From an uncultured Chloroflexia bacterium (GTDB lineage: Bacteria > Chloroflexota > Limnocylindria > Limnocylindrales > CSP1-4), in NCBI GenBank assembly GCA_963713095.1, contig CAVQKK010000001.1, positions 338,054 through 402,053 of the forward strand: a stretch of DNA of 64,000 nt. Direction: 5' to 3'. The notes beneath the pieces were generated by a model that worked only from the letters and a program-made list of their open reading frames with translations, did no database searches and was not told the origin of the DNA. Positions 29,151 to 40,781 of the stretch are shown here, piece by piece. Position 1 is the first letter of the stretch. Each line of letters starts with the position of its first letter. Both the position numbers and the translations under genes were made by a program.

Positions 29151-30368
29151 ATGAGCCGGATCCTGGTCGCCATGTCGGGCGGCGTCGACAGCTCCGTCGC
29201 GGCCGCCCTGCTGCATCAGCAGGGCCACGAGGTCGTCGGCGTGTGGATGCGTCTCCACGACGTGGCCGACAGCTACTCGGCGTTCCGGAAGAGCTGCTGC
29301 TCGGCCGATGCCGCCGACGACGCGCGGCGCGTCGCCGCGCGGCTCGGGATCCCGTTCTACGTCATGAACCTCGAGCGCGAGTTCGCCTCGGGCGTGATCG
29401 AGCCGTTCGTCGCCGCGTACCTCGGCGGGCGCACCCCGAGCCCGTGCGTCGACTGCAACAGCTACGTCAAGTTCGGGGCGCTGCTCGGTCGTGCGCGCCA
29501 GCTGTACCAGTGCGAGGCTGTCGCCACCGGTCACTACGCGCGCCGGCTGGTGGTGGACACGCCCGACGGCCCGCGCGCCCGGCTGGCACGTGCCGCTGAC
29601 GCCGACAAGGACCAGACGTACTTCCTGTACGGTCTGCGCCAGGATCAGCTGTGGCACAGCCGCTTTCCCCTGGGCGACCTGGTCAAGTCCGATGTGCGCG
29701 ACATCGCCCGCGGCCTGGACCTCGTGACCGCGGACAAGCCCGAGAGCCAGGAGATCTGTTTCGTGCCCGGCGGCGACTACCGCGCGGAGCTCCGGTCACG
29801 CGGCAGCTGGAGGCCGGTGAGCGGCCCGGTGTTCGATGCAGACGGCACGCGGGTCGGAGAGCACGGCGGCGCCGCGGGCTTCACGGTAGGGCAGCGCAAG
29901 GGCCTGGGAATCTCGCTGGGCGAGCCACGGTTCGTGTCCCTGATCGACCCCGCGACCAATGCGATCGTGCTCGGTCGACGGGAGGATCTCGAGACGCGAT
30001 ACATCCCGATCGAAGCCGGCACGTTCGTGGCCGGCGAGCCTCCGGCGGGCCGCGATGCGGCCGGCGCCTGGCGACCCTTCCGGGCGCAGGTACGGATCCG
30101 CCACCGCGCGCCGCTGGTCGAGGCGACGGTCCGTGCCGCGAGCGCTGGGGAGCCGGCCCGGGGCGGCAGATGGCTGATCGAGACGGACCGCCCGGTGTGG
30201 GCGATCGCGCCCGGCCAGGCGTGCGCGCTGTATGACGGAGACGCGTGCCTGGGCGGGGGCAGGATCGAGAGTCCCGGCGGGGCAGCGATCGGTGTGGGCG
30301 CGCGGGTAGCCGACGGGGCCACCGTGCAAGGCGGCGGGAACCCGGCCGCCGTGGGGTCTTCCGCGTGA
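29151..30368 (+). CDS. mnmA: tRNA 2-thiouridylase MnmA
   Basis: [47 protein letters not shown]; TACAAT 7 nt upstream. Confidence 0.96.
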
Positions 30369-30646
30369 TCATCGGCCCGGCCCCCGCGCTGGCTCTCCTG
30401 GTCGGGCTCGTCCACACGGCCCTCTACGTGCTGATCCGCGGCGACGCCGGCGGCCGCTTGCCGCTGACCTACCTCGCGGCGTCGCTCGGCGCGTGGGCCG
30501 GCGCGGCGATCGGCGGTCGGCTGGGGATCGAGGTGCTCACCATCGGCGACTTCGGGCTGATCCCGGCGTCGCTCGTCGCCTGGCTCGGGATCGGGATCGT
30601 CGCCATCCTCGCGACCCTGGGACCGCAGTCGCCCAAGGTGCGCTGA
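30365..30646 (+). CDS. Small hydrophobic membrane protein (about 3 TM)
   Basis: GTGA overlap with mnmA stop; almost entirely hydrophobic, 93 aa. Confidence 0.7.
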
Positions 30647-30649
30647 CCG

Positions 30650-30862
30650 GTGCCTGGCGATCGGGAGCCCGCAACCGACCGCAACCCGGTGCCGGTACCC
30701 CGGCCGCTGGGCGGCCTCGCCGATCTGGCCGAGCTGCTGGGCGGGGACACCCAGCGGTCGCGGCGGTTCCTGGGTGGGCTCGTGGTCGGGGCGCTCGTGG
30801 GGGCCGCCGTCGCCGGCGGCTCGCTGCTCCGCCGGCGGAAGGATCGGCCGACCGAACCCTGA
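30650..30862 (+). CDS. Small protein with a C-terminal Gly-rich TM helix and basic tail
   Basis: RRFLGGLVVGALVGAAVAGGSLLRRRK; fills the gap before alaS. Confidence 0.55.
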   Translation: MPGDREPATDRNPVPVPRPLGGLADLAELLGGDTQRSRRFLGGLVVGALVGAAVAGGSLLRRRKDRPTEP

Positions 30863-30935
30863 CGATGGGGACCCGGAGGCGCCGGCGGTCGTCGCGGGCG
30901 CTGGAGCGCCCGTCCCGTTCGCTACCATTGCCCCG

Positions 30936-33731
30936 ATGGCCAGCCCCACCTCCGACCCATCCGTCCCGTATCTCCCCGCGTCCGAGATCCGGCGTCGGTT
31001 CGTCGAGTTCTTCGCCGAGCGCGGCCACACCATCGTGCCCAGCGCGAGCCTGGTGCCCGCGGGCGACCCGACGCTGCTGTTCACGAACGCCGGCATGGTC
31101 CAGTTCAAGGATGCGCTGACCGGGGTCGAGAAGCGCGACTACGTCCGGGCCGTCGACTACCAGCGCGTCCTGCGCGTGGCCGGCAAGCACAATGACTTCG
31201 AGGAGGTCGGCCGGACGCCCCGCCACCACACGCTGTTCGAGATGCTCGGCAACTGGAGCTTCGGCGACTACTTCAAGCGCGACGCGATCCTGTGGGCGTG
31301 GCAGTTCCTTACCCGCGACCTGGGCATCCCCGGAGATCGGCTGGCCGCGACCACCTACACCACCGATGAGGAGGCGTACGCGGTCTGGCGCGACGAGATC
31401 GGCCTGCCGCCCGAACGCCTCGTCCGCTGGGGCGACTTCCCGGCCGGCGACGAGAAGAACTGGTGGCGGATGGGCGACATCGGTCCCTGCGGGCCGTGCT
31501 CGGAGCTCCACTACGACCGTGGCGCGCACCTGTCCGAGGGCCCGGAGTGCGTCCCGGATCACAGCGAACATTGCCCCCGCTGGCTCGAGGTCTGGAACCT
31601 CGTGTTCATGGAGTTCGAGCTCCATCCGGACCGGAGCCTGACGCCGCTGCCGGCGCCCGGCGTGGACACCGGTATGGGGCTTGAGCGGATCGCGTCGGTG
31701 GTCCAGGGGGTCGCGAGCAACTACGACACCGACCTGTTCGCCCCGATCCACGGGCGGATGCGCGAGCTGCTCGGTCACGACCCCGAGGCGTTCGAGCAGG
31801 AGCGCTTCAGCTACCAGGTGATCGCCGACCACGCCCGCGCGGTGACGTTCCTGATCGCCGACGGCGTGCTGCCCGCGAACGAGGGCCGCGGCTACGTTCT
31901 GCGCCGGATCCTCCGCCGCGCCGTTCGACACGGGCGCCTGCTGGGCCGCACCGAGCCGTTCCTGGGTGAGACGGCCAAGGTCGTGATCGAGACGATGGCC
32001 GGCGCGTATCCGCACCTTGCCCAGCGGCGTGCCGAGATCCTGGGTGCCATCGAGCGCGAGGAGCGCCAGTTCAACCGGACACTCGAGGCCGGCACCGGGC
32101 TGCTGGAGGAGGCGCTCATCCCCCTGACGTCGGCGGCGCGCGAGGTCGGCCGCCAGGCGGACAGCCTGCCAGCGGACGCGCCGGTGCTGCCGGGCGCGGT
32201 GGCGTTCCGGCTCCACGACACGTACGGCTTCCCGATCGACCTGACCGTGGAGCTGGCCGCCGAGTATGGGGTGCGGACGGACCTGGCCGGGTTCGAGGAT
32301 TCGCTCGCCGAGCAGCGGGAGCGGAGCCGGAGCGGGACGAAGGCGGAGCTGGCGAAGACGGCCGAGATCGCCTCGCTGTACAACTCACTCCTGTCCCGGG
32401 CCGCGCCCACCGAGTTCCTGGGTTACGAGACGAACACGGCCGACGGGCGCGTGGTCGCGATCCTGCGCGATGGCGTCGAGTACGAGACCCTCGAGGCCGT
32501 TGCCGAGATCGAGCTCAGGGCCGATGCCTCGGCGCGGGCAGAGCTGGTGCTCGACCGTACGCCGTTCTACGCGGAGAGCGGCGGGCAGGTCGCCGACACC
32601 GGCGTCATCCGCGGGGCGGACGGCGCGGTGCTGTTCGAGGTCGACGACGTCCGGCGCGTGGCCGGCACCCAGAACGCCGGGCTGATCGTCCACCGCGGGG
32701 TGCTCCATGGCGCGCTGCGCGTCGGCGAGATCGTCCGGTCCGAGGTGGACGCGGCGCGCCGCGCACGCACGATGCGCAACCACACCGGGACCCACCTGCT
32801 GCATCGGGCGCTGCGCAACGTGGTGGGGGAGGGGGCGCGCCAGGCCGGCTCGCTGGTGGATCCCGACTACCTGCGGTTCGACTTCCCGCTCGACCGGGCG
32901 CTGAGCGACGACGAGCAGCGTGCGATCGAGGCCGAGGTGCGGCGGATCGTTCGTGAGGACCGCCCGGTCACGGTCGAGTGGATGACGATGGCCGAGGCGC
33001 AGGCAGCAGGTGCCGATGCGTTCTTCGACGAGAAGTACGGCGAGCGGGTGCGGACGGTCCGGGTCGAAGGGTTCAGCCACGAGCTGTGCGGCGGGACCCA
33101 CTGCCGGGCCAGCGGCCAGGTAGGCAACTTCGTGATCACCGGCGAGCGCAGCATCGGCTCGGGGATGCGCCGGATCGAGGCCGTGACCGGCGAGGGCGCC
33201 GATCGGTTGATGGACCAGCGGTTTGCGGCGCTCCAGCGGGCGGCGACGGCCGCCGGAGCGATGACCACGGACGCGATCGAGGAGCGGATCGCAGCCCTCC
33301 AGGAGGAGCTGCGTGAGGCGAAGCGGCGCCTGCGCAGCGGCGCGGCGGGTGGCCCCCCGCGCCCGGGCGATCTGGCCGGCAGGGCCGAGGAGGTTGCGCC
33401 CGGCGTCCGGTTCCTGGGCTGGCACGGCGATCTGGAGTCGGTCGATGCGCTCAAGGCGCTGGCCAAGGACGTGCGCGGCGCGCTGCCCAGTGGGATCATC
33501 GCGCTCGGGCTCGACGCCGATGAGCCGCAGCTGTTCGTGACCGTGAGCGACGACCTCGTTGCGCGTGGCATCGCGGCAGGACCGCTCGTCCAGCAGGCAG
33601 TCAGCGCGATCGAGGGACGTGGAGGAGGTCGGCCGCAGATGGCCCAGGGCAAGGGCACGCGCCGGGAGGGGCTCGGGGAGGCGATCGCGGCGGTGCGCGC
33701 CGCGGCCGCCCGCCGGGGCAGGGCGGTCTAG
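30936..33731 (+). CDS. alaS: Alanine--tRNA ligase
   Basis: LLFTNAGMVQFK, HHTLFEMLGNWSFGDYFK, DTGMGLER, editing HTGTH and ELCGGTH, GRGGG tail. Confidence 0.98.
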   Translation: MASPTSDPSVPYLPASEIRRRFVEFFAERGHTIVPSASLVPAGDPTLLFTNAGMVQFKDALTGVEKRDYVRAVDYQRVLRVAGKHNDFEEVGRTPRHHTLFEMLGNWSFGDYFKRDAILWAWQFLTRDLGIPGDRLAATTYTTDEEAYAVWRDEIGLPPERLVRWGDFPAGDEKNWWRMGDIGPCGPCSELHYDRGAHLSEGPECVPDHSEHCPRWLEVWNLVFMEFELHPDRSLTPLPAPGVDTGMGLERIASVVQGVASNYDTDLFAPIHGRMRELLGHDPEAFEQERFSYQVIADHARAVTFLIADGVLPANEGRGYVLRRILRRAVRHGRLLGRTEPFLGETAKVVIETMAGAYPHLAQRRAEILGAIEREERQFNRTLEAGTGLLEEALIPLTSAAREVGRQADSLPADAPVLPGAVAFRLHDTYGFPIDLTVELAAEYGVRTDLAGFEDSLAEQRERSRSGTKAELAKTAEIASLYNSLLSRAAPTEFLGYETNTADGRVVAILRDGVEYETLEAVAEIELRADASARAELVLDRTPFYAESGGQVADTGVIRGADGAVLFEVDDVRRVAGTQNAGLIVHRGVLHGALRVGEIVRSEVDAARRARTMRNHTGTHLLHRALRNVVGEGARQAGSLVDPDYLRFDFPLDRALSDDEQRAIEAEVRRIVREDRPVTVEWMTMAEAQAAGADAFFDEKYGERVRTVRVEGFSHELCGGTHCRASGQVGNFVITGERSIGSGMRRIEAVTGEGADRLMDQRFAALQRAATAAGAMTTDAIEERIAALQEELREAKRRLRSGAAGGPPRPGDLAGRAEEVAPGVRFLGWHGDLESVDALKALAKDVRGALPSGIIALGLDADEPQLFVTVSDDLVARGIAAGPLVQQAVSAIEGRGGGRPQMAQGKGTRREGLGEAIAAVRAAAARRGRAV

Positions 33732-34994
33732 ATGGCGTTCCTGCGTCGCCTGTGGAGCCGAGACGAGGAGCCGGTGCCAGCCGCGTGCACGGCTCTCGAC
33801 ATCGGCACCGAGTACGCCAAGGCGCTCGTGTTCGAGATCGACGACACGGGGCACGGGACCGTCGTCGGCGTGGGCCGCAAACGCCAGGGCCTGTCGCACA
33901 TGCAGTCGGGCACGGTGGCCGACATCGCGGCCGTCGTCGACAACTGCTCGGTCGCTCTCCAGGAAGCCGAGGAGATGGCGGGATTCCGGCCCACGCAGGT
34001 GGTCATCGGGATCGCCGGCGAGCTGGTGAAGGGGTTCACGACAACCCTGACCCAGGAGCGCAAGAAGCCCGAGCAGCCGATCAGCGACGCGGAGCTGGTC
34101 AAGCTCATCGACACCGTCCAGCACGAGGCGATCCGCGAGGCGGAACGCTCGATCACCTGGGAGACGGGCCTGCCGCACGTGGATGTCCGGCTGGTCCACA
34201 GCGCGATCGTGGGCGCCTCGATCGACGGCTATGCGCTCACCAATCCGGTCGGGTTCCAGGGCCGCCACGTCAAGATCGGGATCTTCAACGCCTTCGCGCC
34301 GCTGGTCCACCTGGGCGCGCTCCAGTCGGTGGCGAGCCAGCTCGACCTCGAGCTGCTCGAGGTCGTGGCCGAACCGTACGCGGTCGCGCGCGTGCTGGGC
34401 GCCGAGCAGGTCCGCCAGGCAGGCGCCCTGTTCATCGACGTCGGCGGTGGCACCACGGACGTGGCGCTGGTGCGACAGGGCGGGATCGAGGGGACCCGGA
34501 TGTTCGCGCTCGGCGGTCGCGCGTTCACCAAGTCGATCGCGGACCGGCTGGACCTGCCGTTCCCCCGTGCCGAGGCGCTCAAGGTCGACTATGCGCGTGG
34601 CCTCGACATCGAACGGCGGGACGACGTCGCGGGGATCATCCACGACGACGTCCAGGTCTGGGCGGCAGGCGTCGAGCTGGTGATGGAGGAGCTGGCGGCA
34701 GGGGAGATGCTGCCGGCGAAGATCCACCTGTGCGGCGGCGGCTCGAGGCTCCCCGAGATCCGCGAGGCCATCGCGGCCGAGCGCTTCTGGAAGCGACTCT
34801 CGTTCGCCCGCCCGCCGGAGGTGTCGATCATGTCGCCCGGCGAGGTCGAGTCGATCTCGGACGCCACCGACCTCCTGGTCGACCAGCAGGACGTGACGCC
34901 GCTTGGTCTTGCCTACCAGGCGATCGAGCTCCACACGACCGAGGATCCGCTCGATGCCGCCCTCCGCCGGGTGCTCCGGGCGATGAAGGTCTGA
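33732..34994 (+). CDS. FtsA-like actin-fold ATPase (orphan, outside the dcw cluster)
   Basis: ALDIGTE (phosphate 1), 1C/SHS2-like insert (IDGYALTNPVGFQG), EPYA, IDVGGGTTD (phosphate 2), AEALK, LCGGGSRL. Confidence 0.85.
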   Translation: MAFLRRLWSRDEEPVPAACTALDIGTEYAKALVFEIDDTGHGTVVGVGRKRQGLSHMQSGTVADIAAVVDNCSVALQEAEEMAGFRPTQVVIGIAGELVKGFTTTLTQERKKPEQPISDAELVKLIDTVQHEAIREAERSITWETGLPHVDVRLVHSAIVGASIDGYALTNPVGFQGRHVKIGIFNAFAPLVHLGALQSVASQLDLELLEVVAEPYAVARVLGAEQVRQAGALFIDVGGGTTDVALVRQGGIEGTRMFALGGRAFTKSIADRLDLPFPRAEALKVDYARGLDIERRDDVAGIIHDDVQVWAAGVELVMEELAAGEMLPAKIHLCGGGSRLPEIREAIAAERFWKRLSFARPPEVSIMSPGEVESISDATDLLVDQQDVTPLGLAYQAIELHTTEDPLDAALRRVLRAMKV

Positions 34995-35113
34995 CGATGG
35001 CCCACCGCCGTCCGATCCATGTCGACGCGCAGGTCCGGGAGCCCGCACCCGGGTGGCCCGCGCAACGCATGGGCCCGGCGGATCGCGGCGGGTCGGGGTA
35101 GGCTCGGGCCGGC

Positions 35114-36922
35114 ATGGCCACCATCGTCTATCTCGACGCCGAGGACGAGATCACCTCCGCCGCGTCGCGGATCCGCGAGGCGGCGGACACGCGCGTCGGC
35201 CTCGTGCTCCCGTTCGGCTCCCGCGTCGCGACGTCGCGGATCAACTTCCGGCTGCTCGCCCGCGAAGCCATGAGCAAGGACCGGCGGCTGGACATCATTG
35301 CGCCCGACGCGTCGGCCCGTGCCCTCGCGGCATCGGCCGGGCTGCCGGTGTTCGGCTCGGTGGCCGAGTACGAGAGCGCGCTCGAGGCTCCTCCGCCGGG
35401 CATGGACGCCGAGGCCACGGCGGGTGGCGCCTTCGGCGCGGGCGCTGCGGCGGGGGGGGCCGACGTCGCATCTGTTGCCGGCCCTAGCGTCGCGGCCGGT
35501 ACCGTCTCATCGTGGGACAGGACCGAGCCGGCCGTCGTGGGTGACGATGCCCGGGCCGGATTCGCCCGGCCGGCGCCCCTCGACGCGGAGGACCGGGGCA
35601 GGCGCGATCTCCCCGTGATGCGATCCCGCCGGCGTCTTCCGGTCCGAGCCGTGGCCGTGGCGGTCGTGCTGCTGCTCGTGATCGGCGGCGCGGGTGCGGT
35701 CGCCGGCTACCTGTTGCTCCCATCCGCGGTGATCACGATCACGCCCCGCATCGAGGAGGTCGGCCCGATCTCGTTCGACGTCCACGCGAATCCCGCCGCG
35801 ACGGCGGTGGATGCCGCTGCCGGCGTCATCCCGGCCCAGACGCTGACCATCCCGGTCGAGTCCCAGGGCGACTTCCCGGCGACCGGCAAGCGGGTCGAAA
35901 AGACGGCGGCGACGGGCGGTGTGCGGTTCAAGAACTGCGATACCTCGAACGGTCACCGGATCCTCGCGGGCACCGTCGTAAAGACACCGGGCGGGGTGAG
36001 CTTCACAACCGATCAGGAAGTGTTCTTGCCGGTGGCACCGATCCTGCAACCGGGTGACAAGCTTGACTGCCAGACCAGTGAGACAAGCGTAACGGCGGTC
36101 AAGCAGGGCACAGACGGAAACGTCAAGGCTGGCACCATCACTGTCCTGCCGGCCTCGCTGAACGCCAATGTCTTGAGCGTCACCAACCTGGATCCAACAT
36201 CGGGTGGGTCCCGAACCGAGTACGTGCGGGTGTCGCAGGCGGACGTCGACGCCGCGGTCGAGCAGCTGACCAAGGACATCGAGGCCCAGTTCGCCACCGA
36301 GCTCGAGAACCCAACTCGGGTTCCACCCGGGACCACCGCCTTCCCGGACACCGCCGTTCTGGGGGACACGGTGCCCTCGGTCGATCCGGCAACGCTGGTG
36401 GGCCAGGAGGTCGACTCGTTCACGCTCCGGATGACCGCGCAGGGCACCGTCCTCGCCGTGGATCCCGCCCCGGTCCAGTCGATCGCGCGTCAGCGCCTGT
36501 CGGGCGACGTCAGCGACGGCTACCGGCTGGTCGACGGATCGACCAGCGTCGAGGTCGGGGACGGCGAGGTGGTGGCGGGTGTCGTGACCTTCCCGGTGAC
36601 CGGTTCGGCCAGGGAGGTTCAGCCGGTCGACGGCCCGGCGCTCCAGACGCAGGTGCTGGGGATGTCCGAGTCCGACGCGCGGGCGCTGCTGGCGCCGTAT
36701 GGCGACGTGACCATCGAGCTGTGGCCCGACTGGGTCCACTCGGTGCCGTCGCTCCAGCAGCGGGTGACGCTGACGGTGAACGAGCCCGTGGACACCACGC
36801 CGTCGCCGTCGGCCAGCCCTGTACCGTCGGTGGCCACGCAGTCCGAGGCGCCATCCGGTTCACCTTCAGAGGCGCCATCGGGGGGCGCCGGCGGGAGCGA
36901 GCCGGTACCATCCGCCGGATGA
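35114..36922 (+). CDS. Single-pass membrane protein with an extracellular baseplate-J/gp47-like region
   Basis: About 90-aa N-terminal alpha/beta domain, low-complexity linker, basic patch + TM (about 35640-35720), A.G.V.F.N / GTVVKT..G..F.T / GTDGNVKAGTIT / VTN..PTSGG pattern, Ser/Pro tail; family by resemblance. Confidence 0.7.
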   Translation: MATIVYLDAEDEITSAASRIREAADTRVGLVLPFGSRVATSRINFRLLAREAMSKDRRLDIIAPDASARALAASAGLPVFGSVAEYESALEAPPPGMDAEATAGGAFGAGAAAGGADVASVAGPSVAAGTVSSWDRTEPAVVGDDARAGFARPAPLDAEDRGRRDLPVMRSRRRLPVRAVAVAVVLLLVIGGAGAVAGYLLLPSAVITITPRIEEVGPISFDVHANPAATAVDAAAGVIPAQTLTIPVESQGDFPATGKRVEKTAATGGVRFKNCDTSNGHRILAGTVVKTPGGVSFTTDQEVFLPVAPILQPGDKLDCQTSETSVTAVKQGTDGNVKAGTITVLPASLNANVLSVTNLDPTSGGSRTEYVRVSQADVDAAVEQLTKDIEAQFATELENPTRVPPGTTAFPDTAVLGDTVPSVDPATLVGQEVDSFTLRMTAQGTVLAVDPAPVQSIARQRLSGDVSDGYRLVDGSTSVEVGDGEVVAGVVTFPVTGSAREVQPVDGPALQTQVLGMSESDARALLAPYGDVTIELWPDWVHSVPSLQQRVTLTVNEPVDTTPSPSASPVPSVATQSEAPSGSPSEAPSGGAGGSEPVPSAG

Positions 36923-37440
36923 GCCACATCCTGGGCATCGACCTCGGCGCGCGGAGGATCGGCCTCGCCATCGCCGATGAGCGGATCGGGATCGCGAGAC
37001 CGCTGGCGACGATCGCGCGCGCGGGCTCCGTGGAGGCGGATGCGGCGGCCATCAGCCGGGTCAGTCACGAGCAGCAGGCCGCGGAGCTGGTGGTCGGGCT
37101 TCCGATCGACGCCGGGGGCGACGAGGGATCGATGGCCGTGGCGGCGCGGTCCTGGGCCGCCGAGATCGGCGAGCGGACGAGCCTGGCGGTGACCCTGCGG
37201 GACGAGCGGCTGTCGTCGTTCGAGGCCGAGCAGCGACTGGGGCGGATGCCGCGAGGCCGGTCCGGCGGGCCGCCCTCGCGCACGCAGCGCAACGCGTTCC
37301 GGGCCCGGATCGATCGCGAGGCCGCCGCCGTGATCCTCCAGGACGAGCTGGACGCCCGGCGTGATGCCGGTGCCGGTGCAGCTCGTGTCGATCCCGCCGG
37401 GCGAGCCGACGCCATCGTGCGAATGCCGGAGGGCCGGTGA
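36919..37440 (+). CDS. ruvX: Pre-16S rRNA nuclease YqgF/RuvX
   Basis: ILGIDLGARRIGLA, VVGLP, DERLSS, IDREAAAVILQ; ATGA overlap. Confidence 0.94.
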   Translation: MSHILGIDLGARRIGLAIADERIGIARPLATIARAGSVEADAAAISRVSHEQQAAELVVGLPIDAGGDEGSMAVAARSWAAEIGERTSLAVTLRDERLSSFEAEQRLGRMPRGRSGGPPSRTQRNAFRARIDREAAAVILQDELDARRDAGAGAARVDPAGRADAIVRMPEGR

Positions 37441-38837
37441 GCGTTCGCGGCGGAAGGGGTCCCCGGGACCCGTACGCCACACCCGGTCCGGCTTCGACGC
37501 CGCCCACCTCTGCGCGCCGCGTGAGCTCGTACCAGCGGACCGGCCGCTACGGCCGAGGTCCGGGCGACCAGCGGCGGTACGTGGGCTACGGAGACCGGAA
37601 GGGCGGCGTGCCCGGGATCCTGCGGTTCATCGCCTTTCTGTTCGTCCTGGCGGCGGCCGTGCTCCTGGTCATGGTCACCGTCGCGCGGCCGCTGGTGCGC
37701 GCCGTGGTCGTCCCGTGGGCATGGGACAACCCCTCCGCGCTGCGGATCGGGTTCGTGTCCGACCTCGTCCGGGAGGACCTCGGATCGGCGCTCACCGCTC
37801 CCGCCGGCAGCGACGCATCGACGGTCGAGTTCACGGTCGAGACGGGGGACACGCCGGCGACCCTCGCGCCCCGGCTCCAGGAGGCCGGGGTCATCGCCAG
37901 CCAGCACGCCTTCTTGTACGAAGCCCTGTCCGAGGACCTCACGCCACATCTGACCGCGGGCCGCTTCTCGCTCGCCCTGAACCTGACTCCCGCCCAGGTC
38001 GTGGATGGGCTGGTCAACAACCGGATCGTCGTGCACACCGTGGTGGTGACGTTCCGGGAGGGGCTCCGGATCGAGCAGATGACGGCCAAGCTCGAGACCG
38101 TCACCGGGACCGCCGTCGATGCCAAGGCGTTCTATGACCTCGCGATGCACCCCACCGACGAGCTGCTGGCCGACTATCCGTGGCTGCTCGACACGTCGGT
38201 CCGCCCGAAGGGCGCATCGCTCGAAGGCTTCCTGTACCCGGCCACCTACGACCTGCGGGTCGGCGATGCTGAGGCCACGACGGCGGAGGGGCTGATCCGG
38301 ATGATGCTCGACGCGTTCTACCAGCGCGTCGGCCAGGAGCGGCTGGACGTTCCCGGCTCGCGGGGCCTGACCTTCTACCAGGTGCTCGTGATGGCGTCGA
38401 TCGTCGAGCGCGAGGCGGTGCTCGACGAGGAGCGGCCGCTCATCGCCGGGGTCTATCAGAACCGGCTCGACCCGAAGAAGTGGAAGACCGGCCTGCTCGA
38501 GTCGGACCCGACGATCTTCTACGTCAATGACACGCTCCAGCTGGCCCAGCTGGACTTCGCGAAGTGGCCGACATACGTGTTCTGGGACACGCTCAAGGAG
38601 CAGCTGCCCGCAGCGCTCCCGGACGCGCTCGCCGGGTACAACACCTACACCAGCAAGGGTCTGCCGCCGGGGCCGATCTGCTCGCCCTCGCTGCCGTCGA
38701 TCGATGCCGCGCTTGCACCGGACACCAAGGCCGGTTACCTGTTCTTCATCGCCAAGGGCGACGGGACTGGCCAGAGCGCGTTCGCGAAGACCAAGGCCCA
38801 GCACGACAAGAACGTCGCCAAGTACGGCGGCAACTGA
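37437..38837 (+). CDS. mltG: Endolytic transglycosylase MltG (YceG)
   Basis: N-terminal TM, LEGFLYPATY, MASIVERE catalytic Glu, NRL, LESDPT, YNTY..GLPPGPI, YLFF. Confidence 0.94.
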   Translation: MSVRGGRGPRDPYATPGPASTPPTSARRVSSYQRTGRYGRGPGDQRRYVGYGDRKGGVPGILRFIAFLFVLAAAVLLVMVTVARPLVRAVVVPWAWDNPSALRIGFVSDLVREDLGSALTAPAGSDASTVEFTVETGDTPATLAPRLQEAGVIASQHAFLYEALSEDLTPHLTAGRFSLALNLTPAQVVDGLVNNRIVVHTVVVTFREGLRIEQMTAKLETVTGTAVDAKAFYDLAMHPTDELLADYPWLLDTSVRPKGASLEGFLYPATYDLRVGDAEATTAEGLIRMMLDAFYQRVGQERLDVPGSRGLTFYQVLVMASIVEREAVLDEERPLIAGVYQNRLDPKKWKTGLLESDPTIFYVNDTLQLAQLDFAKWPTYVFWDTLKEQLPAALPDALAGYNTYTSKGLPPGPICSPSLPSIDAALAPDTKAGYLFFIAKGDGTGQSAFAKTKAQHDKNVAKYGGN

Positions 38838-38838
38838 C

Positions 38839-40089
38839 GTGCCCGGGCCTTCCGGTGTGGTCAGGGGCCTGCCCACCACCGCCGATTTCGCGCCACCGCC
38901 GGGCATCGCCACCCGGCGTCGCTGGGCCGACGAGGATCGGGCGGCCCGGCCGCTCCGCCTGGCCCGGCTTCGCGACCGGCTGGGGACCGAGGGCATCGAT
39001 GCCTACTTCGGCGTCCGCCCCGAGCACATGCGCTGGCTCACGGGCTTTGCGCTGGCCGACGGCGAGGAGAAGGTCGCGGGCCATTCCGGGCAGTTCCTGG
39101 TCGGAGACACCGACGTGATCCTGGTCACCGACTCGCGGTACACCCTCCAGGCGCGGCGCGAGGCACCGGAGGCGTCGGTCGAGGAGATCGGGTACGAGCT
39201 GCCCCGCGCCTGGCCGGCCCTGCTCGCCCGGCTCGGCGCCCACCGGGTGGCCGTCGAGGTCGCGGCCGTCCCGTATGCGCTCTGGCAGCGCCTCCGGGAG
39301 GCGGCGCCCGGCGTCGAGCTGGTCCCGATCGAGAACTGGGTCGAGCCGATGCGGGCGGTGAAGACTCCGGGTGAGATCGAGCGGATCGCGGCCGCGTGCG
39401 CGGTGGCCGATCGCGCGCTGGCCGCGATCCTGCCCGAGATCCGGCCGGGCGTGACCGAGCGGGACCTGGCGATGCGCCTGGAGTGGCTGATCCGCACCGG
39501 CGGTGCCGAGGCGCTCGCGTTCGACGTCGCCTGCCTCGCCGGGCCCGAGGCCGCCCTGCCGCACGGGTCGCCGGGCGAGCGTCCGGTGCTCGCGGGAGCC
39601 GTCCTGCTGTTCGACTTCGGGGCGCAGGTCGAGGGCTACCGGAGCGACATGACCCGAACGCTGTTCGTGGGCGAGCCGTCCGCCCGCGACCTCGACCTGT
39701 ACCGGGTCGTGGCTCGGGCCCAGCAGGCCTCGATCGACGCCATCGCGTCTTCGGTCGAGGCGGCCGTGAGCGATGAGCAGCCGATCATCTCGGGGGCCGA
39801 CGCGGACGCCGCCGCGCGGGACGTGATCGAGGCGGCCGGGCACGGCGCCCACTTCGGGCATGGCACCGGGCACGGCATCGGCCTCGCCACGCACGAGGAG
39901 CCGAGCCTGAGCCGGAGGGCCTCGACGGAGCCGCTGCCGAGCCCCACCGTGTTCTCGGTCGAGCCCGGCGTCTACCTGGACGGCGAGACGGGCGTCCGGA
40001 TCGAGGACCTGGTGCATCTCGACGCGGCCCGGAGGATCGTCGAGCGCCTGACGTCGTTCCCACGCGACGTGCTGGTGCTGCCGGGCTGA
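38839..40089 (+). CDS. Xaa-Pro peptidase, M24B family
   Basis: TDSRY, RAVKTPGE, ALPHG, DFGA...SDMTRT, HGTGHGIGLATHE, VEPGVY, GVRIED; adjacent to efp; start approximate. Confidence 0.93.
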   Translation: MPGPSGVVRGLPTTADFAPPPGIATRRRWADEDRAARPLRLARLRDRLGTEGIDAYFGVRPEHMRWLTGFALADGEEKVAGHSGQFLVGDTDVILVTDSRYTLQARREAPEASVEEIGYELPRAWPALLARLGAHRVAVEVAAVPYALWQRLREAAPGVELVPIENWVEPMRAVKTPGEIERIAAACAVADRALAAILPEIRPGVTERDLAMRLEWLIRTGGAEALAFDVACLAGPEAALPHGSPGERPVLAGAVLLFDFGAQVEGYRSDMTRTLFVGEPSARDLDLYRVVARAQQASIDAIASSVEAAVSDEQPIISGADADAAARDVIEAAGHGAHFGHGTGHGIGLATHEEPSLSRRASTEPLPSPTVFSVEPGVYLDGETGVRIEDLVHLDAARRIVERLTSFPRDVLVLPG

Positions 40090-40155
40090 CCAGTCGCCTC
40101 TGGTAGCATCCCGGGACACCCACTCGAGTATGCGCGGGAGTCCGCACACCTCGCG

Positions 40156-40210
40156 ACCGTGCCATACGAACACCACCGTGCCATACGAACACCACCGCGC
40201 CATACGAACA
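40156..40210 (+). repeat. Tandem repeat ACCGTGCCATACGAACACC, 19 bp x about 2.9
   Basis: Copies at 40156, 40175 and 40194 (last is truncated with one mismatch), directly upstream of the efp RBS. Confidence 0.9.
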
Positions 40211-40223
40211 GCGGAGCACGCCC

Positions 40224-40781
40224 ATGATCAGCACCGGCGAGCTGCACAAGGGCGTCGTCATCGAGCTTGACGGCGACCTGTGGCAGATCCTCGACTACCA
40301 CCACATCAAGATGGGCCGCGGATCCGCCCAGGTCCGGATCAAGCTGCGCAACGTCAAGAAGGGAAGCACGGTCGAAAGGTCGTTTCAGGCGGGCGACCGG
40401 TGGCCGCGCGCCCAGCTCGACCGCCGGCCCGTCCAGTTCCTGTACCGGGACGGTGACGACTTCCATTTCATGGAGGCCGAGTCGTACGAGCAGTTCACGC
40501 TGAGCGCGGACCAGCTCGAGGACGCCGTGGGCTTCCTCAAGGACAGCATGATGCTCGACCGGACCAGCTACCAGGGCGAGACGCTGGGCGTCGAGCTGCC
40601 GGTGACGGTGGACCTGGTGGTCGCCGAGACGGAGCCCGGCTACGCCGGCGACACGGCGGCGGGCGCGCGCAAGAGCGCGACCATGGAGACCGGTCTCGTG
40701 GTGACGGTGCCGCTGTTCGTCAACGCCGGCGACACGCTGCGCATCGACACCCGCACGGGCGAGTACCAGACGCGCGTCTAG
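40224..40781 (+). CDS. efp: Elongation factor P
   Basis: HIKMGRGSAQVR loop (Arg at tip), FLYRDG, GDTA, METGLVVTVPLFV, IDTRTGEY. Confidence 0.97.
   Translation: MISTGELHKGVVIELDGDLWQILDYHHIKMGRGSAQVRIKLRNVKKGSTVERSFQAGDRWPRAQLDRRPVQFLYRDGDDFHFMEAESYEQFTLSADQLEDAVGFLKDSMMLDRTSYQGETLGVELPVTVDLVVAETEPGYAGDTAAGARKSATMETGLVVTVPLFVNAGDTLRIDTRTGEYQTRV

Follow-up and report, generated by a model that had tools for sequence, protein, structure and literature searches.

In bacteria, actin-like proteins serve as organisers of cell division (FtsA), of the growing wall (MreB) and of pili (PilM). Here we ask what role a further protein of this fold may play in a soil Chloroflexota bacterium, where its gene lies between alaS and ruvX and is followed by the gene for a membrane protein, referred to below as the partner. 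Literature searches yielded no description of this ATPase-partner pair: the available portion of PMC10608941 uses the FtsA equivalog family TIGR01174 only as a marker, and the available portion of the main text of PMC10633639 makes no mention of FtsA, baseplate, alaS or RuvX. The pair is uncharacterised.

The locus comprises alaS, the 420-aa ATPase gene, the 602-aa partner gene, ruvX and mltG, all on the plus strand and placed as in an earlier sequence-only reading of the window, i.e. of the whole stretch of 64,000 nucleotides that was analysed. The alanyl-tRNA synthetase gene alaS spans positions 30774..33731, and its product matches the Pfam families tRNA-synt_2c (609.8 bits, from residue 71), tRNA_SAD and DHHA1; position 30774 is the start of the longest ORF, whereas translation probably begins at Met55 (ATG at 30936). 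The TAG stop codon of alaS abuts the ATG of the ATPase gene (P0001, 33732..34994), and a spacer of 119 nt (34995..35113, no strand assigned), read directly in the sequence, separates the ATPase gene from that of the partner (P0002, 35114..36922). The partner gene had been described as coupled to ruvX by an ATGA and ruvX as coupled to mltG by a GTGA, and both overlaps of stop and start codons are indeed present in the sequence: ruvX (YqgF; 36919..37440; PF03652, 104.1 bits) starts with the ATG at 36919, and mltG (YceG family; 37437..38837; PF02618, 218.6 bits; TIGR00247, 141.2 bits) starts with a GTG. A promoter and terminator scan of the plus strand between 30000 and 40500 found no promoter-like or terminator-like site, and an Rfam search of the same region, the 119-nt spacer included, gave no match. 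The neighbouring genes are housekeeping genes (those for an M13 peptidase, an mnmA-type tRNA methyltransferase (tRNA_Me_trans) and an M24 peptidase as well as efp, xseA and dxs), and scanning the window ORFs between 27082 and 44953 revealed no phage, ftsZ or pilus gene, in agreement with the earlier statement that neither ftsZ nor a pilus gene adjoins the ATPase gene. The GC content at the locus is unremarkable.

The ATPase is not the FtsA of the divisome but a second, distinct paralogue. It matches the Pfam family FtsA (PF14450) with 62.3 bits (cut-off 31.8), scores 105.6–110.5 bits against TIGR01174, which is under the cut-off of 175.85, and has no match to SHS2_FTSA (PF02491) in Pfam. When the ATPase was modelled with AF2 (pLDDT 90.4) and the model used as query in Foldseek, the top matches were all FtsA structures (TM 0.73–0.86 over 393–417 columns), with 7q6i being the best, and these matches bear out the FtsA-type subdomain arrangement including the 1C insert; structures of PilM rank second by fold (TM 0.56–0.78). 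The ATP-binding residues D23, G25, D236, G238, G335 and G336 do not vary among 35 family sequences. The same genome encodes a canonical FtsA, which reaches 414 bits against TIGR01174 and whose gene is located directly upstream of ftsZ. As this ftsZ (C1:841391-842353) is the only one in the genome, the sole canonical ftsA-ftsZ pair lies some 470 kb from the ATPase locus; two MreB genes are present as well. In a quick maximum-likelihood tree the 35 members of the ATPase family were separated from eight canonical Chloroflexota FtsAs with an SH-aLRT support of 98. Thus, as the sequence-only reading had required, the ATPase is neither the only FtsA of its genome nor grouped with canonical FtsA.

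FtsA holds the tail of FtsZ at subdomain 2B. This segment had appeared shorter in the ATPase than in FtsA, and the comparison confirmed it: it comprises 55–59 residues in 35 of 35 family members versus 71–79 residues in the eight canonical Chloroflexota FtsAs, making it 16–24 residues shorter than in all of the latter. The 1C segment comprises 94 residues in the ATPase versus 81 residues in canonical FtsA. Amphipathic helices had been suggested for both ends of the protein, and for the C-terminus this suggestion holds: residues 406–420 (34947..34991, plus strand), of which 406–418 form a helix in the model, constitute a candidate membrane-targeting sequence containing the 11-mer with the highest hydrophobic moment of the whole protein (0.81), and for the majority of the 35 aligned sequences of the family the best C-terminal 11-mer has a moment of 0.5–1.08. 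The basic-hydrophobic peptide at the N-terminus is less regular than the C-terminal helix.

The partner carries a baseplate-J-type barrel in its ectodomain. Its structural model (pLDDT 83.8) starts with an alpha/beta domain (residues 1–92; 35114..35389, plus strand; pLDDT 95–98), which matches no Pfam or NCBIfam family, appears to be cytoplasmic and is the predicted docking site of the ATPase. Residues 96–176 are disordered in the model and are followed by a single transmembrane helix (residues 177–200; 35642..35713, plus strand) that coincides with a hydrophobic stretch; a basic cluster, RSRRR, precedes this helix, so that, according to the positive-inside rule, the N-terminus should face the cytoplasm. 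The modelled ectodomain is beta-rich (residues 204–555; 35723..36778, plus strand) and includes the barrel (residues 260–369; 35891-36220, plus strand), which matches Baseplate_J (PF04865) with 30.6 bits (cut-off 21.1). The ectodomain was further matched by PHROG_6, a baseplate wedge subunit (1.5e-12), and by the PDB profile 9g8s_C (5.2e-7), its model by 8kea_d in Foldseek (3.1e-8), and the matches in BFVD are Baseplate J proteins. In the comparison with solved J proteins the probability is 1.0, with a global TM of 0.13–0.25 and an rmsd above 30 Å over the full alignments; the barrel alone superposes over 110–120 residues at 3.8–5.1 Å, and likeness at the 3Di level runs over 340–450 columns. 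The resemblance to baseplate J, which had been noticed together with the lack of tail genes nearby, is thus borne out for the barrel. PADLOC assigned no defence family to the partner and only one negligible match (E 0.0064) to the ATPase.

The two genes are strictly linked. In a sample of 201 Chloroflexota genomes we found an orthologue of the ATPase (E <= 2.4e-46) in 60 genomes besides the source genome, and the partner gene is located directly downstream in all 60 of them, as judged from coordinates in 48 cases, from tblastn in two and from an HMM of the partner alignment in ten; two of these ten are truncated by contig ends, one of them being weak (E 9e-6), and one of the 60 genomes (G173) is unpublished. 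Homologues of the partner occur in 99 of the 201 genomes, and in at least 28 Chloroflexota loci (8 of 20 loci and 20 further ones) the partner gene precedes ruvX-mltG without the ATPase gene. The N-domain is retained in 25 of 28 such loci and must therefore have a use independent of the ATPase. The constant member of the pair is the partner rather than the ATPase. A match to the partner is absent from at least 80 of the 179 YceG-bearing Chloroflexota genomes, indicating that a specific tie to MltG is weak.

Patescibacteria-like contigs from metagenomes show the same gene order, alaS-ATPase-partner-ruvX. Eleven metagenome loci are 53–63% identical to P0300, a protein named Patescibacteria by NCBI; alaS lies upstream of the ATPase gene in all eleven, the partner gene directly downstream in all nine that have sequence there, and ruvX directly next in seven, with L139 and L143 being apparent duplicates and L144 and L145 near-identical. 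Hence, the linkage in other genomes on which the sequence-only reading had staked its proposal is found in both groups. In these loci mltG is not adjacent, suggesting that the tie to mltG is weaker than that to alaS and ruvX. The parallel drawn earlier to ReoM/IreB, the cell-wall regulator encoded in the alaS-ruvX interval of Firmicutes, gains no support from the present observations. The pair is very old, and the conserved alaS-ruvX order could partly reflect inherited synteny. The best matches of the partner are 50–71% identical, and a profile search of genome contigs with the ATPase alignment recovered only close kin of the Limnocylindria type (best 80 loci, 65–93% identical). We also considered natural fusions, as 14 longer proteins, 54–89% identical to the ATPase, are joined to pieces of alaS, RuvX or Baseplate_J; all of them are single-member clusters and probably result from merges in assembly or gene calling.

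We then co-folded the ATPase with residues 1–95 of the partner, using our own alignments and taking the median of three runs. The score was 0.67 versus 0.14 for the best control; of 80 solved complexes 58 attain this mark, as do 2 of 110 mismatched pairs, counts that apply only roughly because the co-fold, a single job, used its own alignments. The runs agree in 100% of the contacts, and the pLDDT of the partner is at least 87. The model thus supports docking of the ATPase on residues 1–95 of the partner, in line with the earlier proposal that the ATPase is bound to the partner. In the predicted interface of the ATPase, F265 is kept in 32, W310 in 27 and G313 in 25 of the 35 family members. 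On the side of the partner, entropy in lineages without the ATPase is increased by 0.47 bit at 21 interface positions versus 0.11 bit at 61 other positions (one-sided permutation p 0.019, ignoring phylogeny and with the interface taken from the same co-fold model).

ATPase and partner probably form one membrane-spanning complex. On balance, we favour the view that they constitute a single trans-membrane module in which a membrane-held ATPase docks on the partner and which links the cytoplasm to the envelope beside FtsA-FtsZ and MreB. The ATPase would lie on the cytoplasmic side of the membrane, with the C-terminal amphipathic helix as its probable anchor, and would contact the cytoplasmic alpha/beta domain of the partner via a conserved 2A/2B face (F258, L260, F265, D306, W310, G313 and L316), whereas the partner would cross the membrane once and display its beta-rich ectodomain, built around the baseplate-J-type barrel, on the outside. 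Such a module would be expressed as part of the alaS-ruvX(-mltG) housekeeping operon, would be passed on mostly by vertical descent within Chloroflexota, Dormibacterota and Patescibacteria, and would work alongside canonical FtsA-FtsZ and MreB instead of replacing them, with the link between cytoplasm and envelope serving growth, division or a surface structure. We infer that the module binds the membrane, uses ATP, oligomerises and has a role in the envelope. Polymerisation of the ATPase, its independence from FtsZ, for which the shortened 2B segment is the one indication, a phage origin of the outer domain of the partner and a positioning of peptidoglycan processing, all proposed in the sequence-only reading, would be further, conjectural features.

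Parts of this arrangement are known from other systems. Like FtsA (7q6i, 7q6f, 7q6d, 4a2a), the ATPase has an actin fold of FtsA topology with phosphate and adenosine motifs and a C-terminal amphipathic helix as candidate membrane-targeting sequence, and its predicted docking on a bitopic protein recalls that of FtsA on FtsN. It differs from FtsA in its score under the TIGR01174 cut-off, its separate group in the tree, its shorter 2B and longer 1C segments, the position of its gene, which is beside neither ftsZ nor ftsQ, and its coexistence with canonical FtsA. A cytoplasmic actin-fold protein sitting on the cytoplasmic end of a single-pass, wall-facing protein, as modelled here, would also resemble MreB-RodZ and PilM-PilN. 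RodZ offers a folded cytoplasmic domain, and the partner likewise presents a folded domain and not a short peptide; the pair has, however, no sequence or family relation to MreB, RodZ or PilN, and the ectodomain of the partner is of the J type. With baseplate J, Mu gp47 and T4 gp6 (PF04865, PHROG_6; 8kea, 9euf, 9gb2, 9ki1) the partner shares the barrel domain, but it is membrane-anchored, possesses a cytoplasmic domain, lacks accompanying tail genes, is chromosomal and vertically conserved, and has a low global TM.

The similarity to FtsA raises the alternative that the two proteins are an accessory divisome pair, binding each other at the Z-ring, with the ATPase co-polymerising with FtsA or binding FtsZ and the partner coupling septal wall synthesis in the manner of FtsN or FtsQ. 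We regard this as unlikely, although the closest folds are FtsA structures, among them the FtsA-FtsN complex 7q6i, the Chloroflexota operon contains the wall enzyme gene mltG, the partner is found in 0 of 20 listed YceG-less genomes, and the N-domain retained in ATPase-less loci could dock on canonical FtsA there. The pair is located outside and not near the dcw/ftsZ region, and the 16–24 residues missing from 2B are present in all eight canonical Chloroflexota FtsAs. Even less probable, in our judgement, is that ATPase and partner are mere neighbours with unrelated jobs, kept together by an old and seldom rearranged alaS-ruvX operon. The ATPase is never found apart from the partner, neither in the 60 genomes nor in the nine Patescibacteria-like loci, the co-fold score clearly exceeds that of the control, and the interface positions are relaxed where the ATPase is absent; these observations have to be set against the loci in which the partner stands alone and the conservation of the alaS-ruvX slot with or without the ATPase.

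An assembly platform of the PilM/PilN type for a pilus or secretion apparatus is very unlikely. PilM is the second-best fold match of the ATPase and is likewise paired with a bitopic protein, and a member of the cluster from Berkelbacteria is named 'pilus assembly protein PilM' by NCBI, but the ATPase reaches only 20.6 bits against PF11104 (cut-off 27) and 25.4 bits against TIGR01175 (cut-off 133). Moreover, no pilus or secretion gene is present in the window ORFs between 27082 and 44953 or in L141, the one locus of the Patescibacteria-like set that was scanned, and the partner, with its folded 92-residue N-domain and J-type ectodomain, is not PilN-like. That the locus is left over from a prophage or contractile injection system, as suggested by the matches to Baseplate_J and PHROG_6 and by the best fold matches of the partner, which are all phage baseplate wedge proteins, is hardly credible, as the context already contradicts it: genes for a sheath, tube, spike or other tail part are lacking nearby, the GC content is inconspicuous, the genes have a fixed place in a housekeeping operon across phyla, and a true contractile-system cluster with sheath, tube, spike and its own J protein is located on contig C5.

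The baseplate-wedge fold forms rings in phage tails. Extending the trans-membrane module that we favour, we tentatively consider that the pair represents a third system of the actin family, one that does not depend on FtsZ and dates back to the ancestor of the Chloroflexota-Dormibacterota-Patescibacteria group. In it, a membrane-bound FtsA-like filament or oligomer would be wired via the bitopic protein to an extracellular assembly of the baseplate-wedge fold and would organise the monoderm envelope; we think this possible, with the odds against it. If it is true, the operon slot would be a character of gene order that joins Patescibacteria and Chloroflexota, and the shared alaS-ATPase-partner-ruvX order in any case bears on the proposed kinship of the two. 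It is unusual for a chromosomally encoded surface domain anchored in the membrane to have a phage-baseplate fold, and a further strongly constrained actin-like family with a fixed membrane partner, spanning Chloroflexota, Dormibacterota and Patescibacteria, would add an envelope system to soil and water lineages that are abundant and hard to culture. Since Patescibacteria include the genetically tractable Saccharibacteria, its function is directly testable. The best 120 matches of the ATPase are 84–97% identical, 115 of these 120 are exactly 420 aa long, and the segment lengths are near-invariant from Chloroflexota through Patescibacteria.

The ATPase P0001, a 420-aa FtsA-like paralogue, and its partner P0002, a 602-aa bitopic membrane protein, belong to a row of five consecutive genes on the + strand of the window, consisting of the open reading frames of alaS (30774-33731), P0001 (33732-34994), P0002 (35114-36922), ruvX (from an ATG at 36919 to 37440) and mltG (37437-38837). 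As read from the sequence, the ATG of P0001 directly abuts the alaS stop codon, and stop and start codons overlap as ATGA between P0002 and ruvX and as GTGA between ruvX and mltG. Scanning the + strand from 30000 to 40500 revealed no terminator-like or promoter-like sites, and a Rfam search of 30000-40500 gave no family matches. The outer neighbours are housekeeping genes, coding for an M13 peptidase, an mnmA-type tRNA methyltransferase (tRNA_Me_trans) and an M24 peptidase and comprising efp, xseA and dxs. By the names of close homologues, the organism falls within Candidatus Limnocylindrales of the Chloroflexota. The longest alaS ORF starts 54 codons ahead of the first Met preceding the Pfam domain (30774-30935), and the mltG ORF carries a long basic N-terminal extension ahead of a hydrophobic segment (37437-37650), the true start codons of both genes being uncertain.

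P0001 scored 62.3 bits against Pfam FtsA and 110.5 bits against the NCBIfam FtsA equivalog, below the cut-off of 175.85. The sequence-only reading had described it as an orphan FtsA-like protein, and a separate canonical ftsA-ftsZ pair is indeed present on contig C1, about 470 kb away from the window, with the canonical ftsA (843146-844249; 414 bits) located immediately upstream of the sole ftsZ of the genome (841391-842353). The same genome also contains two MreB genes. Using an AF2 model of P0001 built from a 35-sequence alignment (pLDDT 90.4), a structure search identified the FtsA structures 7q6i, 7q6f and 7q6d as closest (TM 0.73-0.86), PilM (TM 0.56-0.78) and MreB ranking behind them. 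A quick maximum-likelihood tree separates the 35 family members from eight canonical FtsAs, all from Chloroflexota, by a branch with an SH-aLRT of 98, and MreB groups on the canonical-FtsA side of that branch.

Segment lengths were taken from one common alignment of the ATPase family (n = 35) and canonical Chloroflexota FtsA (n = 8). The 2B segment comprises 55-59 residues in the ATPase family and 71-79 residues in canonical FtsA, in line with the earlier claim that this region is shorter than in FtsA, and the 1C segment has 94 residues in 33 of the 35 family members as compared to 81 in canonical FtsA. The remaining segments are of near-invariant length throughout the 35 family members. The nucleotide-binding motifs are retained, with D23, G25, D236, G238, G335 and G336 being invariant in the 35-sequence alignment. 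The final 15 residues of P0001 form an amphipathic helix whose hydrophobic moment of 0.81 is the maximum of the protein, and this C-terminal pattern recurs across the family, the short basic-hydrophobic N-terminus being less regular.

AF2 modelling of P0002 from a 22-sequence alignment (pLDDT 83.8) gave a compact α/β N-domain (residues 1-92) followed by a disordered stretch (residues 96-176), a single long hydrophobic helix (residues 177-200) with a basic cluster ahead of it, and a β-rich ectodomain (residues 204-555) with a Pro/Ser-rich tail after it. The N-domain had no Pfam or NCBIfam family matches. The resemblance of the external region to baseplate J proteins, suggested earlier from the sequence, was recovered by four approaches: residues 260-369 match Pfam Baseplate_J (30.6 bits, cut-off 21.1) and PHROG_6 'baseplate wedge subunit' (1.5e-12), the partner-family profile matches the solved baseplate J protein 9g8s_C (5.2e-7), and Foldseek ranks phage wedge proteins top in both PDB and BFVD with a probability of 1.0. 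However, the global TM is only 0.13-0.25, good superposition being limited to the barrel (110-120 columns at 3.8-5.1 Å). As the barrel alone superposes well, the safe statement is that the modelled partner contains a J-type barrel within an ectodomain that differs in overall shape from known wedge proteins. Partners from the Chloroflexota family f23 are about 890-970 aa long (L046, 7346-10027; L047, 7385-10066; L156, 5760-8678; L157, 4355-7072), with an insert of about 300 residues separating N-domain and ectodomain.

The true contractile-system cluster of the genome is found on a contig other than that of the pair (L163, G000:C5:137000-156900). It encodes a sheath, a gp19-type tube, a CIS tube protein with LysM, a VgrG-like spike, its own Baseplate_J protein (648 aa), a P2-I-like protein, and a zinc-ribbon/F5_F8-type-C protein, and is a complete contractile injection system or phage-tail-like cluster.

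Among 201 sampled Chloroflexota genomes, 60 besides this one carry a P0001 orthologue (E ≤ 2.4e-46, 32-87% identity), 14 more give matches at canonical-FtsA level only (E about 1e-21 to 1e-24), and a P0002 homologue (E ≤ 1e-5) occurs in 99. The proposed linkage of the two genes holds in all 60 orthologue-bearing genomes, the partner lying immediately downstream of the ATPase gene as judged by coordinates in 48, by tblastn in 2, and by an HMM of the partner alignment in 10 that the first search had overlooked; two of these 10 partners are truncated at contig ends, one of them being a weak match (E 9e-6). Exclusion of the unpublished genome G173 gives 59/59.

The complete order alaS-ATPase-partner-ruvX-mltG was found in 10 of 20 fetched loci, and two showed ATPase and partner alone on shorter contigs. 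The other eight contain partner-ruvX-mltG without the ATPase, with alaS immediately upstream in four, a pattern of partner without ATPase that was repeated in twenty additional loci. Since the partner occurs without the ATPase and the ATPase was never seen without the partner, the partner is the constant element of the locus. Its N-domain is retained in 25 of 28 ATPase-less partners. The three in which it was not detected (L043, L176 and L186 from genomes G089, G035 and G116) all belong to family f20, suggesting one single loss. A search for longer ATPase forms yielded nothing beyond single-member merges among close kin, namely 14 long proteins (P0472-P0485) in which the ATPase is joined to alaS, RuvX or Baseplate_J pieces; frameshifts or faulty gene calls in public assemblies are the probable cause of these merges. 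One ATPase with 85% identity to P0001 comes from a 2057-base contig (L067) whose record bears the title Candidatus Methylomirabilota, more likely reflecting a binning error than a genuine occurrence in Methylomirabilota.

When 1.84 billion representatives were scanned in full, 375 ATPase clusters were obtained at E ≤ 1e-30. Organism names are absent from most sampled clusters; the named members are Berkelbacteria (representative 49% identical), Dormibacteraeota (42%), 'Patescibacteria group' (33%), Azambacteria (30%) and Portnoybacteria (29%), and a protein atlas gave the same taxonomic lead for both ATPase and partner. Using P0300, a protein named Patescibacteria by NCBI, as query returned 11 metagenome loci, including the apparent duplicates L139/L143 and L144/L145, and from the 53-63% identity to P0300 we infer that these contigs derive from Patescibacteria. 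The ATPase gene is preceded by alaS in 11/11 and immediately followed by the partner in all nine loci with sequence there; ruvX comes directly after the partner in seven and 2.7 kb beyond in one. With a threshold of E ≤ 0.01, none of the 11 loci gave an mltG match, and an HU gene comes after ruvX in L141. The alaS matches in L139-L149 end at about residue 804 of the window AlaS (the L141 ORF having 574 aa), so these AlaS proteins seem to lack the C-terminal part.

Co-folding of the ATPase with the N-terminal region of the partner, as envisaged in the sequence-only reading, was carried out with residues 1-95 and scored 0.67 (0.66-0.68 across three runs), compared to 0.14 for the highest of three controls. 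Among solved complexes, 58 of 80 attain this mark, and among mismatched pairs 2 of 110, counts that are only approximate as our own alignments were used. Contacts agreed to 100% between the runs, with a partner pLDDT of at least 87. On the ATPase, the predicted interface is formed by residues 258-272 and 305-317 of subdomains 2A/2B together with 143-147, and F265, W310, G313 and F258 are conserved in 32, 27, 25 and 24 of the 35 family members, respectively. On the partner, the 21 predicted interface positions are more variable by 0.47 bit in 25 ATPase-less than in 20 ATPase-linked N-domains, compared to 0.11 bit for the 61 other N-domain positions (one-sided permutation p 0.019, ignoring phylogeny), and L47 is retained in 18/20 ATPase-linked versus 8/25 ATPase-less partners. 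As phylogeny is uncorrected and the interface was taken from a model, these values are only suggestive of a partner interface that relaxes where the ATPase is absent.

The best-supported picture is that the pair would constitute a single trans-membrane module, in which an FtsA-family ATPase positioned at the membrane docks onto the cytoplasmic domain of a bitopic partner that would display its J-type ectodomain toward the wall. The pair would be co-expressed with housekeeping genes and operate beside FtsA-FtsZ and MreB. The ATPase may bind the membrane via its C-terminal helix, turn over ATP and act independently of FtsZ, and the module might oligomerise. The pairing logic is the same as in FtsA-FtsN, MreB-RodZ and PilM-PilN, although neither protein belongs to the families of these pairs. 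A wall-related role is conceivable, being weakly indicated by predicted co-transcription with mltG in Chloroflexota and by the absence of the partner from YceG-less genomes: YceG is missing from 22 of 201 genomes, and none of the 20 listed ones contains the partner. Partner matches are, however, also lacking from at least 80 of the 179 genomes with YceG, so a specific tie to MltG would be weak (the unpublished genomes G038, G145 and G173 are counted in the partner and YceG tallies). A literature search for the ATPase-partner pair found no paper describing it; in databases P0001 is labelled 'cell division FtsA domain-containing protein' or in some cases PilM, and P0002 'baseplate J/gp47 family protein'.
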